In this document: positions 3,643 through 48,858 of the stretch, one piece after another | How positions within the stretch are numbered: the stretch's first letter is position 1 | Layout: every line of letters starts with the position of its first letter | Source of the DNA: a phage | Direction: 5' to 3' (one strand) | Sequence record: PZ386965.1 | DNA length: 64,000 nt | Translations under genes and position numbers: made by a program | Notes under the pieces: model-generated | The model's input: the letters and a program-made list of their open reading frames with translations, nothing else | What the model was told of the DNA's origin: nothing | Database searches by the model: none

Positions 3643-4634
3643 TATTGAACCTTATTAATATGAGTTAACAGCTCTTTAGTTTGTTCCCAACTGATGCACG
3701 CATCGGTAACGGAAACGCCATAGGACATATTATCAGAAATTTTTTGATTTCCTTCATGTAGGAATGATTCTATCATAATTCCTTTGACCAAATCATTAGC
3801 TGCTAAATTTTTACCAATACCAATTTGATTGCTATAATGCCCAGCAGCGTTTGCATGGCTACAGTCAACCATTACATAATGATTCAGACCTACGGCCCTT
3901 GCTTTGTTAGAAGCTTCTTGAATATCAGAAGAATGATAGTTCGGGCCATTGGTCCCGCCACGCAATACGATATGCGTATTCTGATTACCTTCAGCTTCAA
4001 CAATGCCTACAGTACCATCGACGTCCATACCCATATACCGATGAGGCCAGGCGGCACTATACATCGCGTCTGTAGCTACTTTAATAGAACCATTGGTTGC
4101 GTTCTTGAAGCCTACGCACATCGGTAGACCTGAAGCAATTTCACGATGTGTCTGACTTTCAGTCGTACGGGCGCCAATAGCAACCCATGAGAAAATACCA
4201 GAAAGATACTTAATCGTGAATGGGTCTAATACTTCAGTTGCTAATGGAAGTCCCATACGTAGAAGTTTACGACACAATGTTCGTGCAACTATAAGACCGT
4301 GGTTCATATCAAAACTTCCGTCAAGATATGGATCATTTACAAGACCTTTCCAACCTACGGTAGTTCGAGGCTTTTCAAAATAAACGCGCATCACTAACAG
4401 AACATTAGGAAGACGAGTTTGAAGTTCAGCCAGACGTTTGCCGTATTCAACAGCAGCAATAGGGTCATGAATTGAACAAGGACCTACAACAATAAGTTTG
4501 CGTGGGTCTTCACCATTCATAATCGAATTAACTTGTTCGCGATGAGAAGCCACTTGTGATGCGTAAGCTTCCGACAAAGGAATAATCTCAGCCAGTTCTT
4601 TTGGAGAAATAAGTTTTCCGACGACAGGTAACAT
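3642..4634 (-). CDS. 3-deoxy-7-phosphoheptulonate (DAHP) synthase, class I (AroG/AroF-like)
   Basis: 330 aa with IVVGPCSIHD, MRVYFEKPRTTVGWKGL, GARTTESQTHRE motifs of AroG-type DAHP synthase; stop overlaps cd start (TAATG). Confidence 0.9.
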   Translation of the reverse strand: MLPVVGKLISPKELAEIIPLSEAYASQVASHREQVNSIMNGEDPRKLIVVGPCSIHDPIAAVEYGKRLAELQTRLPNVLLVMRVYFEKPRTTVGWKGLVNDPYLDGSFDMNHGLIVARTLCRKLLRMGLPLATEVLDPFTIKYLSGIFSWVAIGARTTESQTHREIASGLPMCVGFKNATNGSIKVATDAMYSAAWPHRYMGMDVDGTVGIVEAEGNQNTHIVLRGGTNGPNYHSSDIQEASNKARAVGLNHYVMVDCSHANAAGHYSNQIGIGKNLAANDLVKGIMIESFLHEGNQKISDNMSYGVSVTDACISWEQTKELLTHINKVQ

Positions 4635-44764: not shown

Positions 44765-45289
44765 TCATTTTAGCAAAATAAAATCAACTTGTTCTGCCAA
44801 TGAACGTCTAAACATTAATTGACAACTTCCGAGGATGAAATCAGGTGCTTCATAGACAGCGATGTAGTATCCTTTAGCTTTCAAGAGTTCAACATCCACT
44901 TGGTCATCAAACCATGCATAAACCGCGTCAACACTTTCAAATCCAAAATAGAACCCTTGAGCCCAATCTTCACTCAATTCAAATGTGTACTCAATTCTAT
45001 GGTATCTTAAGATATTTTGTTCAAGGAGTTTGTCTTCATTTACTGTAGGACGATTAGGGACATTATAGTTGTCGCCGTGATGGTAGAAGTTACCTGAGAT
45101 TATTCCATGTTTATCAAGGAACTCCCATGTTTCTTCGGAGTTGTCAGTGCCAGACCAACCGTAAGGTGAGCGAGGTTCTTTATTCCAAGAGGTTTCCCAA
45201 ATTCTGACGGCTTTACCGTCTTCGATAACAATTCCTGGTAATGATTCACGTTGAGTACAAAAACTACGTTCTACGCGATAAACTAACAT
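44765..45289 (-). CDS. hypothetical protein (174 aa)
   Basis: ORF track; promoter motif at 45316-45344. Confidence 0.45.
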   Translation of the reverse strand: MLVYRVERSFCTQRESLPGIVIEDGKAVRIWETSWNKEPRSPYGWSGTDNSEETWEFLDKHGIISGNFYHHGDNYNVPNRPTVNEDKLLEQNILRYHRIEYTFELSEDWAQGFYFGFESVDAVYAWFDDQVDVELLKAKGYYIAVYEAPDFILGSCQLMFRRSLAEQVDFILLK

Positions 45290-45315
45290 ATTATTCTCCT
45301 CTGGTTGATATGGTT

Positions 45316-45344
45316 ATAATATCAAAACCAGAGGAGAAGTAAAC
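45316..45344 (-). promoter_or_regulatory. sigma70-type early promoter
   Basis: Minus strand GTTTAC-17 nt-TATTAT. Confidence 0.4.
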
Positions 45345-45348
45345 AACT

Positions 45349-45768
45349 TTATGCGAAAGCAGCTGGGCTATATTTTTTAATTTGGAATTCAGGAACTACC
45401 ATGAACTGCCCGGCAAAAACAATGTTATAAAGCTTGACACCATCTTCTACCCAACGGTCGCTAATAAATCCAGCGATTTGCTTAGTTTTCCATGGTGTTC
45501 CATCAGTTGCCGCAGCAATAGTGAATTCATGGTCTTTTTCAACAGAAACTGATCTGCATAGTCCCCATTTGAACGCTTTTTCTTCTGGCTCAATGAACTG
45601 GCTTTTAACGTAACCAATGTTGCCATCAGCATCACGAACTTTAACTTCATTGCGACCAAAAACAGGATCACTTACATAAAGAACTTCAACCAACTTACCA
45701 GCAACTTTAGAGCGAGAAGCATCCGATACGTGTACGTAATCACCAATAGAGAGATTTGCAATATTCAT
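45349..45768 (-). CDS. hypothetical protein, paralog family member 1
   Basis: Shares C-terminal GFISDRWVEDGVKLYNIVFAGQF with two upstream ORFs. Confidence 0.5.
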   Translation of the reverse strand: MNIANLSIGDYVHVSDASRSKVAGKLVEVLYVSDPVFGRNEVKVRDADGNIGYVKSQFIEPEEKAFKWGLCRSVSVEKDHEFTIAAATDGTPWKTKQIAGFISDRWVEDGVKLYNIVFAGQFMVVPEFQIKKYSPAAFA

Positions 45769-45777
45769 AATAATTCC

Positions 45778-46233
45778 TTAAGCTTTACGAGGAGATACAT
45801 AGCGAGTGATTTCAGATTCTTTAACAACTCTGAAGTCACCTAAGAATACGATATTGTATAACTTTTCACCATCTTCTACCCATTGGTCACTAATGAAGCC
45901 ACACATGATATCAGTTTTGTTTGGATAACCATATTCGTCGATGAAATCAAATTCTTTATCAGTCCGGAATTCAACGCCTTTGCAAAGGGCCCATTTGAAC
46001 TGTACATTAGGTTCAGTAGAAGCAAAATGAGCGCTCACATGAGTTTCCAAGAATTTAGGACTTACGTAAGCGTACTGAGTTTCAGTTTTTCCAGAACTAG
46101 GAATGATTCGAACTTTAACTTCTTTAACACGACCAGTACCATTAGTACGAAGTCCTACCACTTCAACTAGACGACCTGCAGCTTTAGAACGAGATGCAGA
46201 CGATACACGCTTAATTTCACCAATAGTAATCAT
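45778..46233 (-). CDS. hypothetical protein, paralog family member 2
   Basis: ORF 45778-46296 trimmed to Met downstream of promoter; C-terminal GFISDQWVEDGEKLYNIVFLGDF. Confidence 0.5.
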   Translation of the reverse strand: MITIGEIKRVSSASRSKAAGRLVEVVGLRTNGTGRVKEVKVRIIPSSGKTETQYAYVSPKFLETHVSAHFASTEPNVQFKWALCKGVEFRTDKEFDFIDEYGYPNKTDIMCGFISDQWVEDGEKLYNIVFLGDFRVVKESEITRYVSPRKA

Positions 46234-46263
46234 AATTTCTCTCTCTTTGTTTAAGTTGAATTC

Positions 46264-46293
46264 ATTATACTCCATCCATCCTTGGATGTACAA
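46264..46293 (-). promoter_or_regulatory. sigma70-type early promoter (paralog 2)
   Basis: Minus strand TTGTAC-18 nt-TATAAT; spacer contains CATCCAAGGATGGATG palindrome. Confidence 0.4.
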
Positions 46294-46295
46294 CA

Positions 46296-46790
46296 TTAAT
46301 TTAGAATATTAACTACTGCACTACGTGGAACCACACTAAAATCACCAGCATGAACAACGTTCAGAAGTTCAACACCGTCTTCAATCCACTGATCAGTTAC
46401 CCATCCATTTACTGGACCAGCGAATGGGCGTCGAATTGAAACATATTTACACAACAAATCAGTAGGCTCAATAGGCTTAATCAGAGTACCGTACATACAA
46501 GCGATATCCATATCAATACAGATGTCTTTAACGGGTTCTACTTCTTCAATCAACAGTTCAAAGTCGGTGCTTGGAAGGGCGGTGGTAGAAATTGTACCGT
46601 ATGAATTTTTAATTTCTAAGAATAACCAAGGGCCTTCAGCTTGTTTGATGAAGTTAACAATAGTGAAACTATTACCTTGAGTGGCACCTAAAATTTCACA
46701 AAACTTTTCATAAGCTCGCATTGAAGCACCGTACCAGTTAATTTGTTTTTCGTCTTTCAGGATGTAAGTAGCCGTGGTATTGATATTCAT
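46296..46790 (-). CDS. hypothetical protein, paralog family member 3 (divergent)
   Basis: C-terminal GWVTDQWIEDGVELLNVVHAGDF related to members 1 and 2. Confidence 0.5.
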   Translation of the reverse strand: MNINTTATYILKDEKQINWYGASMRAYEKFCEILGATQGNSFTIVNFIKQAEGPWLFLEIKNSYGTISTTALPSTDFELLIEEVEPVKDICIDMDIACMYGTLIKPIEPTDLLCKYVSIRRPFAGPVNGWVTDQWIEDGVELLNVVHAGDFSVVPRSAVVNILN

Positions 46791-46822: not shown

Positions 46823-46852
46823 ATTATACTCCAACCATCCTTGGTTGTAAAC
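46823..46852 (-). promoter_or_regulatory. sigma70-type early promoter (paralog 3)
   Basis: Minus strand GTTTAC-18 nt-TATAAT; spacer contains CAACCAAGGATGGTTG palindrome. Confidence 0.4.
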
Positions 46853-46857
46853 TGTTT

Positions 46858-47535
46858 TTATCGCTGTTTTACACTTAACGGGTCAGGATTCTCAGGGACA
46901 TCTTCAAGGCCAAGCGCATAACGCTGAGCATATTTTAACATCAAAATATCTTTAGCACAATCGTGAATACTATCATGGGCAACGAATCCTTTTAGCGTAC
47001 CCATCGGTAATGGACACATACTTAATCCTCGTGTCAACGAGTAAGCTTCGATTGCCGTACGAATATCACGTTGAGCCCAGAATTTAACAGGTTCTAATTT
47101 ATCGGTATCAATATCTGGTTCAAGAACACCTTCATCACGATAGAGGTCACGAATCAAATCGACCAAGATCGGGAAGTCAAAGCTCATACCACGGCACCAC
47201 ATCTGTGATTTCCATTGGTCAACTTTATTAGCTCGACAATAATCTAAAAAGATTTTAATGCCTTCAAGCGTAGTGACATCGTCTTCAGACGGGGCCAGGT
47301 TTTTACGTGCTTCTGCTGATTGTTCTTTCCACCATTTCATAGTGGATTTAGCGAAAACTCGCTTCCCTTTTTGAGAAGCTAAATTAAATTTAATTCGCTT
47401 ACCTCGTTGAACAAGTTCTTCAAATGTTTCAACAACTTCAGGGTCCGAATTATATGCAATAACCGCAAGGTCAATAACAGCCGCTTTTGATGTATTGCCG
47501 AATGTTTCAAAGTCTATAATAACATCAGTGCTCAT
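46858..47535 (-). CDS. dexA: exonuclease A (DnaQ-like 3'-5' exonuclease)
   Basis: 225 aa; MSTDVIIDFETFG... DEDD exonuclease motif I; position upstream of dda. Confidence 0.8.
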   Translation of the reverse strand: MSTDVIIDFETFGNTSKAAVIDLAVIAYNSDPEVVETFEELVQRGKRIKFNLASQKGKRVFAKSTMKWWKEQSAEARKNLAPSEDDVTTLEGIKIFLDYCRANKVDQWKSQMWCRGMSFDFPILVDLIRDLYRDEGVLEPDIDTDKLEPVKFWAQRDIRTAIEAYSLTRGLSMCPLPMGTLKGFVAHDSIHDCAKDILMLKYAQRYALGLEDVPENPDPLSVKQR

Positions 47536-47544
47536 AATTTTCTC

Positions 47545-48858
47545 TCAAATAAAATGGACGTCAAAACGACCACGAGTTGTGCCGACATACAATAACTGTT
47601 TAGCTAATTCTGAATCGGCGTAATGGATACACGGTGTATAAACAAAGGCCGTGTCAACAGACATACCCTGGGCCTTATGGAAGGTTGATACTGGTAGTGC
47701 CTTTACCTTAGTGAACATACGTTTAGCATCCCAGAATTCACTCCATGGAGCTTTACCACCTTTATTCCAGAATTTGTATGTTTCTGCGGTCTTAGCCAAA
47801 AACAAATTGAATTTATAAAGCTCTTCTTCGGAAGAAATAACCTTTATATCTTCGCGGATGTATTCTTCATCATCCCCATATGTTTCTACTGTAAGATTCC
47901 AGTATCGTATCATATATTCGCCTGAAACACCGCGTGCTTTAACGAATGTAGACGTTTCTACAGCGTCTCGAATACGAACGAATTGCCCGTTATTGAAAAG
48001 CATTTCGGTCATATTTTTGCCATCTAGCTTATATGTCTTAGTAAATGGCTCTTGTAGAACAATGACTTCGTCTTTAATAAATGGCTTTTCTGTTTCAAAA
48101 AGTTTTCGGCGAATAATTGAATTCAACTTATCTACTGACTTATTTGTGAATGCCATCATTCGATTTTCGAAAAGGTCTTCAGGAGTTTTAACGACATTAA
48201 AATAATTCATCATATACGATTTAAGGTCTGTATATCCATGAACACCATGCCCATCAACTACTTTATCATAAATCCATTTGCCATTACGAATATCAGTCGC
48301 AACATCAATAATTGGCGCATTGCTACGTTTAACTTCTGTAAGGTCGCATTGCACGAAGTCTTTGTGAGTGAAGAAAGGACTTAGATACGCAGTTGATTCG
48401 CCTGGGTCCACCGGTCGAATCTGACATCGGTCACCAATTCCAATTACTGTACACCATTTAGGGATACTAGCTAACATTATTTTAAACAGAGAACGGTCGC
48501 ACATTGACGCTTCATCAAATAACAGTACACGGCACAAGGCTAAGTCGGGAACCTTTTTCTGTTCAAATAATACGTTTTCTTCGTATGTGGTTGGGTTGAT
48601 TTTAAGAATGCTATGAATGGTTGATGCTTCTTGACCAGCAAGTTTGCTTAGAACCTTTTTAGCAGCATGTGTAGGGGCTGCTAAAATAATACCTGATTCT
48701 CCGGCAGAAATAAGAGCTTCAACAATAAATCTAGTAAGGGTTGTTTTACCTGTACCAGCAGGCCCATTAATAGTTACGTGATGTTTCTTTTCTTTAATAG
48801 CTTTCATAACAACGTTGAAGGCGTTTTTCTGGCCTTCAGTCAAATCATCAAATGTCAT
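47545..48858 (-). CDS. dda: Dda DNA helicase (SF1B)
   Basis: 437 aa; Walker A GPAGTGKTT and SF1 helicase motifs. Confidence 0.9.
   Translation of the reverse strand: MTFDDLTEGQKNAFNVVMKAIKEKKHHVTINGPAGTGKTTLTRFIVEALISAGESGIILAAPTHAAKKVLSKLAGQEASTIHSILKINPTTYEENVLFEQKKVPDLALCRVLLFDEASMCDRSLFKIMLASIPKWCTVIGIGDRCQIRPVDPGESTAYLSPFFTHKDFVQCDLTEVKRSNAPIIDVATDIRNGKWIYDKVVDGHGVHGYTDLKSYMMNYFNVVKTPEDLFENRMMAFTNKSVDKLNSIIRRKLFETEKPFIKDEVIVLQEPFTKTYKLDGKNMTEMLFNNGQFVRIRDAVETSTFVKARGVSGEYMIRYWNLTVETYGDDEEYIREDIKVISSEEELYKFNLFLAKTAETYKFWNKGGKAPWSEFWDAKRMFTKVKALPVSTFHKAQGMSVDTAFVYTPCIHYADSELAKQLLYVGTTRGRFDVHFI

Follow-up and report, generated by a model that had tools for sequence, protein, structure and literature searches.

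Three consecutive genes on the minus strand of the phage sequence record PZ386965.1 (positions 45349-46790 of the 64,000-nucleotide stretch analysed here, referred to below as the window) very likely constitute the motB.1 - motB - motB-like cluster of an RB69-type T4-like phage, encoding small early proteins built from two beta-barrel domains; this is the best explanation of the data as a whole. A sequence-only reading of the window had described three adjacent open reading frames (ORFs) of 139, about 151 and 164 residues that share a conserved C-terminal block, and all three are indeed present, at 45349-45768 (ORF1), 45778-46233 (ORF2) and 46296-46790 (ORF3), with the block as quoted. The 4.9 kb around the cluster match Mosigvirus genomes, among them Shigella phage SHSML-52-1, Escherichia phage Mizar and RB69, at 96-98% identity, and by nucleotide identity the source of the window is an RB69-like Mosigvirus. 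In the RB69 record (AY303349) ORF3 is named motB.1, ORF2 is named motB, ORF1 is 'RB69ORF010c similar to motB' and the neighbouring 174-residue gene is motB.2.

The cluster was already known from the RB69 genome annotation of 2003 and from Patterson-West et al. (2021; PMC7827196), who list two motB copies, one motB.1 and one 29-residue peptide for RB69. According to the same work, MotB and MotB.1 have a common conserved C-terminal domain and different N-terminal domains, and a duplication may have given rise to one from the other. The cluster itself therefore adds nothing new. What is clarified is that the paralogues are conserved rather than diversifying, and that the second motB, which is probably co-transcribed with motB, appears to be an old lineage travelling as a cassette. 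A problem in the T4 reference sequence and a reassigned fold are modest but useful by-products. The features of the cluster are as follows.

46296..46790, minus strand: ORF3, motB.1, 164 residues, isoelectric point (pI) 4.5 (phrog_2333, PF17613, RB69 annotation)
46299..46469, minus strand: C-terminal domain of ORF3, residues 108-164, MotB.1 type (hhalign; net charge -3)
45778..46233, minus strand: ORF2, motB, 151 residues, pI 8.8 (PF17613, phrog_1671, 95% identity to RB69 MotB)
45781..46002, minus strand: C-terminal domain of ORF2, residues 78-151, MotB type (model, hhalign, charge)
45349..45768, minus strand: ORF1, second motB paralogue, 139 residues, pI 6.1 (PF17613; 99% identity to RB69ORF010c)
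45352..45573, minus strand: C-terminal domain of ORF1, residues 66-139, MotB type (alignment)

The three proteins share a homologous C-terminal domain

When the three proteins were compared by BLASTP with composition adjustment, ORF1 and ORF2 aligned over their full length (44% identity, E 3e-32), while ORF3 matched only at its C-terminus (E 2e-10 to ORF1 and 3e-10 to ORF2). All three pass the gathering score of the Pfam motB family (PF17613, 25 bits), with 81.4, 131.1 and 35.1 bits for ORF1, ORF2 and ORF3, respectively. ORF2 covers positions 2-157 of this profile and ORF3 only positions 78-153, through its residues 84-159. The full two-domain MotB layout, in which a KOW-like N-terminal domain carrying the SRSKAAGxLVEV motif precedes the C-terminal domain, is present in ORF1 and ORF2 and not in ORF3, which by these matches is a domain-sharing relative of the MotB family and not a full member. 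Comparison with PHROGs placed ORF1 and ORF2 in phrog_1671, 'MotB-like transcriptional regulator' (ORF2, E 5.5e-64), and ORF3 in phrog_2333 (E 2.6e-82 over residues 1-164). Homologues of ORF3 are 46-98% identical across 98-100% of the query, and the orthologue carries the motB.1 annotation in RB69, RB51 and mar005P1.

The region had been read as a triplication of one paralogous early gene. Paralogy within an early region holds, and extends along the full length of ORF1 and ORF2, but ORF3 has only the C-terminal domain of about 55 residues in common with them. Likewise, the N-terminal SASRSK[AV]AG[KR]LVEV motif ascribed to ORF1 and ORF2 is shared from its second residue onwards (ASRSK[AV]AG[KR]LVEV), the corresponding stretch of ORF1 beginning DASRSK.

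Alignment of the MotB and MotB.1 families to one another with hhalign gave a probability of 98.6% (E 5e-16, 52 columns), with MotB 82-146 paired with MotB.1 112-163. What the proteins share is therefore the entire C-terminal domain, of about 55-75 residues, and reaches beyond the 23-residue block that was first noticed. Coincidence of composition, named in the sequence-only reading as the finding that would refute it, is practically ruled out: no point was found in its favour, and it is contradicted by the composition-adjusted BLASTP comparisons (E ~1e-10), by Pfam scores above the gathering threshold, by the hhalign result and by a block that is invariant in dozens of homologues. The pairwise alignments proposed as a check thus returned true homology throughout (E 3e-32 to 3e-10).

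MotB.1-type C-terminal domains are 62-81% identical between very different phages whose N-terminal parts cannot be aligned. Moreover, three Klebsiella/Enterobacter phage entries of 145-149 residues (P0163, P0170 and P0196) join a KOW N-terminal domain resembling that of MotB to a C-terminal domain of the MotB.1 type; they look like intermediates that link the MotB and MotB.1 subfamilies, and show, at this level, that the domains recombine.

Searched against 1.84 billion representative proteins, a profile of the C-terminal domain matched no more than 34 clusters at E <= 1e-3, of which about 29 are real; those members that were inspected are small proteins whose N-terminal domain is of the KOW or the MotB.1 type. 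As judged from this search, the MotB family is very narrow. Matches of 600-860 residues were set aside: they hit a short repeated stretch of the profile, in 4-7 stretches each, and P0243, the only one inspected, has a repeated SGYATEQWVE and looks spurious.

Fold, charge and proposed function

An AlphaFold2 model of ORF2 built from the family alignment (mean predicted local distance difference test score, pLDDT, 85) comprises two all-beta domains separated by a disordered linker (residues 66-75), with a pLDDT above 90 in the C-terminal domain. The corresponding model of ORF3 (pLDDT 78) has a disordered linker at residues 86-106. In Foldseek searches, which used whole proteins and whose matches are not domain-resolved, the MotB model aligned over 140-158 columns with tandem Tudor, SAWADEE, UHRF1 tandem Tudor domain (TTD) and Spt5 KOW6-KOW7 structures. 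The lists for the whole-protein models contained no oligonucleotide/oligosaccharide-binding (OB)-fold protein, so that by this measure the C-terminal domain did not come out as an OB-fold, and the profile of the C-terminal domain, searched against PDB sequences, gave no match even at E 10. The N-termini of distant MotB family members score above the Pfam KOW (PF00467) threshold. Because of the tandem Tudor and KOW matches, the lists free of OB-folds and the KOW scores of the distant N-termini, we read MotB, from whole-protein matches, as a tandem of two SH3-like barrels, the first KOW-like and the second Tudor-like.

The two domains differ in charge. The MotB N-terminal domain carries a mean charge of +5.3 (ORF2 +7, ORF1 -1), whereas the C-terminal domain has a net negative charge in most members (means -2.3 and -3.3; ORF1 +1). 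MotB.1 is acidic overall (pI 4.5), and its N-terminal domain has been described as an LSm-like fold (Kim et al., 2025; PMC12152347). Relative to ORF2, ORF1 has lost most of the linker, and its N-terminal domain is no longer net positive. Because the N-terminal net charge is -1, ORF1 has probably diverged in its affinity for nucleic acid, which suggests altered or lost non-specific DNA binding.

MotB of T4, made early and in abundance, binds DNA irrespective of sequence, whether unmodified or glucosyl-hydroxymethylated. [quoted passage not shown] MotB also doubles burst size (PMC6070864, PMC7827196). Because ORF2 is its orthologue, ORF2 should act as T4 MotB does.

In the mechanism proposed here, DNA binding by MotB would reside chiefly in its N-terminal domain, which is basic and KOW-like; it is placed there because the N-terminal domain is basic and the C-terminal domain acidic in most members. 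The C-terminal domain found in all three proteins, acidic and SH3/Tudor-like, would serve as a protein-interaction or oligomerisation module, and the cluster would then consist of three different N-terminal 'heads' mounted on one common module. A further step, offered tentatively and on balance unlikely, is that the shared module docks the differing nucleic-acid-binding heads, namely a basic KOW domain (MotB), a neutral KOW domain (second copy) and an LSm-like domain (MotB.1), on one partner, for example H-NS/StpA or each other.

Alternatively, all three proteins might be non-specific DNA binders through a shared OB-fold C-terminal domain, in which case the cluster would raise the dose of a DNA-coating activity. 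The published HHpred assignment (PMC7827196) speaks for this, as do the position of the C-terminal domain as the sole part common to all three proteins and the tight DNA binding of MotB. Set beside the structural matches described above, we consider it improbable.

Several points nevertheless weigh against the reading of the cluster as a set of two-domain MotB-type early proteins with the functions outlined above. All function ascribed to the RB69-type proteins comes by transfer from T4 MotB, at about 47% identity. Deletion of motB.1 from T4 gave no burst or latent-period phenotype (PMC12152347). The division into an N-terminal domain for DNA binding and a C-terminal domain for interaction is drawn from charge and fold, and the published HHpred analysis calls the MotB C-terminal domain a DNA-binding OB-fold of the cold-shock type (PMC7827196). 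Finally, the two promoters described below are consensus matches only, and the region contains 18 promoter-like sites against 18.4 in shuffled sequence.

Genome context and transcription units

The minus-strand order of genes is dda, dexA, ORF3, ORF2, ORF1, motB.2, cef and goF. Comparison with T4, RB51 and IME08 puts the cluster in the dexA-to-cef early region of Tevenvirinae, which is the early, dispensable dda-dexA...cef-goF part of T4-type phages. The flanking genes and the candidate transcription signals are as follows.

47545-48858, minus strand: dda
46858-47535, minus strand: dexA
46823..46851, minus strand: P1, predicted early sigma-70-type promoter, just after dexA and before motB.1 (TTTACA-17-TATAAT, 11/12 consensus)
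46264..46292, minus strand: P2, predicted promoter directly after the ORF3 stop codon and before motB and motB-like (TGTACA-17-TATAAT, 10/12 consensus)
45294..45338, minus strand: strong hairpin immediately after ORF1, at the end of the cluster (folding energy, conservation)
44765-45289, minus strand: motB.2, 174 residues (RB69 naming)

P1 and P2 have in common a 22-nucleotide element, CCAAGGATGGNTGGAGTATAAT, which occurs nowhere else in the window (0 expected), and their spacers are identical at 15 of 17 positions. P1 is conserved in seven Mosigvirus relatives. A near-identical early promoter had been proposed to precede each of the three genes; this is borne out, by way of the 22-nucleotide element, for ORF3 (P1) and ORF2 (P2), but not for ORF1, which starts only 9 nucleotides past the ORF2 stop codon. 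A third promoter for ORF1 was considered and rejected, the third promoter-like site (45343-45316) lying downstream of ORF1, where it would serve motB.2. Because the 9-nucleotide gap holds no promoter and the same junction is kept in RB51, ORF2 and ORF1 are best taken as a single bicistronic unit, which would end at the strong hairpin.

The open frame of ORF2 extends to 46296, giving 172 residues, and the start at MITIGE gives 151. The longer version is unlikely to be used, because the family-conserved N-terminus coincides with the MITIGE start and the 172-residue version would begin upstream of P2.

The hairpin at 45294-45338 (12+6 bp, -23.9 kcal/mol, z -6.5) is considerably more stable than chance would allow, none of 200 shuffled sequences (0/200) folding as well. 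It is conserved in Mosigvirus, and in RB51 a hairpin of different sequence and equal layout is found (-23.7 kcal/mol). The stems at P1 and P2 are weak (z -1.2 and -1.6). The hairpin overlaps the promoter-like site TTTACT-16-TATTAT (45343-45316), and its 3' arm holds the motB.2 Shine-Dalgarno sequence GAGGAG. Read-through transcripts would consequently sequester the motB.2 ribosome site, whereas transcripts starting at the embedded putative promoter (~45309) would not. With an early promoter consensus and a stem-loop together at a border of variable genes, the site that follows ORF1 (45294-45343) resembles a promoter/stem-loop cassette of the PeSL type.

Distribution, age and selection

A tblastn search with ORF1 found a MotB homologue in 778 phage records, 208 of which hold an ORF1-type orthologue (at least 80% identity); no match fell between 60% and 80% identity. 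In a copy-number comparison, as suggested by the sequence-only reading, T4, T6 and IME08 have motB.1 and motB and are without the second motB, while RB51, a Tequatrovirus, has it. No remnant of an ORF1-type gene was detected in T4, the T4 records giving matches in two places only.

A neighbour-joining tree of the KOW-type proteins (180 columns), which is moderate evidence, separates the ORF1-type proteins from a clade that holds every orthologous MotB (bootstrap 0.89); they group with the adjacent motB in only 7.5% of replicates. Because ORF1-type proteins branch outside all orthologous MotB proteins, there is moderate evidence that the duplication separating ORF1 from ORF2 is old. On the same bootstraps (89% versus 7.5%), a tandem duplication of motB that took place recently and locally within the RB69 lineage was rejected.

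Between RB51 and the window the amino-acid identity of motB is 89% and that of motB-like 86%, compared with 70% for dexA, 41% for motB.2 and 69% for cef on the flanks. In some genomes within Mosigvirus, synonymous divergence (dS) of the motB and motB-like pair (0.38-0.46) also exceeds that of the flanks. The pair thus behaves as a cassette that appears to have been exchanged between Mosigvirus and some Tequatrovirus, and such exchange would fit the PeSL shuffling described for T4-type phages (PMC2839356, PMC4122927). Gene order also differs between the genera: it is dexA, motB.2, motB.1, motB in T4, RB51 and IME08, and dexA, motB.1, motB, motB-like, motB.2 in the window and RB69. Either motB.2 or the motB block would have been transposed.

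Nei-Gojobori ratios of non-synonymous to synonymous substitution (dN/dS) were obtained for the window against seven Mosigvirus genomes and RB51 (eight pairwise comparisons). The values were 0.01-0.19 for ORF1, 0.03-0.21 for ORF2 and 0.02-0.28 for ORF3, which are similar to those of goF (0.11-0.19) and motB.2; dda and dexA gave 0.01-0.07. All pairwise values lie well below 1, and positive selection was rejected. Because dN/dS is 0.01-0.28 and the MotB.1-type C-terminal domain is kept at 62-81% identity, the pairwise rates indicate purifying selection on all three genes.

These values bear directly on the view from which the analysis started, namely that the cluster is a tandem triplication under diversifying, arms-race anti-defence selection in which each copy is transcribed independently. 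Three adjacent genes with a common domain in a plastic early region would suit it, as would the interference of MotB with H-NS, a xenogeneic silencer (PMC7827196), and dN/dS values for motB and motB-like that are somewhat above those for dda and dexA. However, low dN/dS in every comparison and the sequence kept by the MotB.1-type C-terminal domain in distant phages speak against diversification. Moreover, ORF1 has no promoter, the N-terminal domain of ORF3 is unrelated, the ORF1-type lineage is old and the literature found reports no anti-defence phenotype. We therefore regard this view as very unlikely. Its broader suggestion of host interaction is reasonable, MotB being a host-takeover protein, but no evidence was found for the narrow anti-defence role.

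Nor is ORF1 likely to be a relic, that is, a redundant and decaying motB duplicate rather than a functional gene. It is indeed shorter, with the linker mostly gone and an N-terminal domain charge of -1 against +7 in ORF2, and T4 and T6 do without it. Its frame is nevertheless intact in 8/8 relatives examined, at the low dN/dS given above; orthologues at 80% identity or more occur in 208 phage records; it matches PF17613 at 81 bits; and its tight 9-nucleotide coupling to motB is kept in RB51. Decay is accordingly very unlikely.

Frameshifts in motB.1 reference records

The T4 reference sequence (NC_000866.4 / AF158101.6) has an extra G within the conserved part of motB.1, giving ATTGGAAGATGG in place of the ATTGAAGATGG of other records. 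As a result, the annotated T4 MotB.1 is 119 residues long and ends in GWVTDQWIGRWR; positions 1745-1855 of the T4 locus (L002, NC_000866.4) correspond to 46299-46400 of the window. The remainder of the domain (EDGVELLNVVHAGEYSVVPRSAVVAILN, followed by a stop) is intact in the next frame. The extra G is absent from 13 other T4, T4T, RB55 and RB59 records; MT984581 annotates 143 residues, and MotB.1 homologues of 143-145 residues are common. The extra G in the reference record is probably a spurious frameshift.

In the study of Kim et al. (2025; PMC12152347) motB.1 was synthesised, the amber construct cites NC_000866.4 and the protein is reported as a 13.8-kDa monomer. For these reasons, the plasmid-expression assays probably used a truncated MotB.1, and the negative MotB.1 results from its only functional study may need to be repeated with the 143-residue protein. 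If docking through the shared module were true, the assays of plasmid-expressed MotB.1 would have missed the full-length protein, since the reference frameshift removes the core of that module.

Two other laboratory-phage records are also affected. In RB69 (AY303349), two single-T insertions within the same 60 nucleotides split motB.1 into ORFs of 132 and 29 residues, the latter being RB69ORF012c (positions 3799-3985 of locus L001, corresponding to 46296-46480 of the window), whereas the window and SHSML-52-1 keep an intact gene of 164 residues. The 29-residue 'Category 3' peptide of Patterson-West et al. (2021) is, as judged from this alignment, a frameshift remnant of RB69 motB.1. In T6 (AP018814), a motB.1 of the 180-residue type is split into ORFs of 55 and 101 residues (L005, 1888-2427), through either a sequencing error or a real mutation. 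Since motB.1 is thus disrupted in three records of classic laboratory phages, counter-selection of the intact gene during cloning or propagation is a possibility.

Comparison with known systems

The PeSL cassettes of T4-type phages (Arbiol et al., 2010, PMC2839356; Comeau et al., 2014, PMC4122927) likewise pair a promoter of the TTTACW-N17-TAYWAT type with a stem-loop at the borders of variable early genes, and the apparent exchange of the motB cassette between genera is a further likeness. The two papers make no mention of RB69 or motB, and of the three promoter-like sites described here only the one after ORF1 has a strong hairpin.

With the tandem SH3-like readers (53BP1 tandem Tudor, UHRF1 TTD, SAWADEE and Spt5 KOW6-KOW7) MotB shares 7-19% identity, at TM-scores of 0.26-0.32 that are low through differing domain orientation. 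This is a resemblance of fold, not family membership, and implies no aromatic-cage function.

ORF3 is the orthologue of T4 MotB.1, a member of the GoF/MotB.1/Frd.2 LSm-like family (PMC12152347). It is about 46% identical to the T4-type proteins of 143-144 residues, and 81% identical over the C-terminal 62 residues. It differs from T4 MotB.1 in being intact, at 164 residues, with a disordered linker insert of 21 residues; the 119-residue T4 reference protein is without the last ~28 residues of the conserved domain.

ORF2 is the orthologue of T4 MotB (PF17613; PMC6070864, PMC7827196), with which it shares the two-domain layout, the dexA-cef position and an early promoter. Identity to the T4-type cluster P0094 is about 47%, and its C-terminal 62 residues match T4 MotB at 50%, but ORF2 has 151 residues rather than 162 and a shorter linker. 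ORF1 is alike in layout; it is, however, an extra paralogue that T4 lacks; its linker is minimal, its N-terminal domain is not basic and it has no promoter of its own.

A further close counterpart is RB69 (AY303349), in which gene order equals that of the window and the proteins are 95-99% identical. The difference lies in motB.1, which is broken by two one-nucleotide insertions in the RB69 record and is unbroken in the window.

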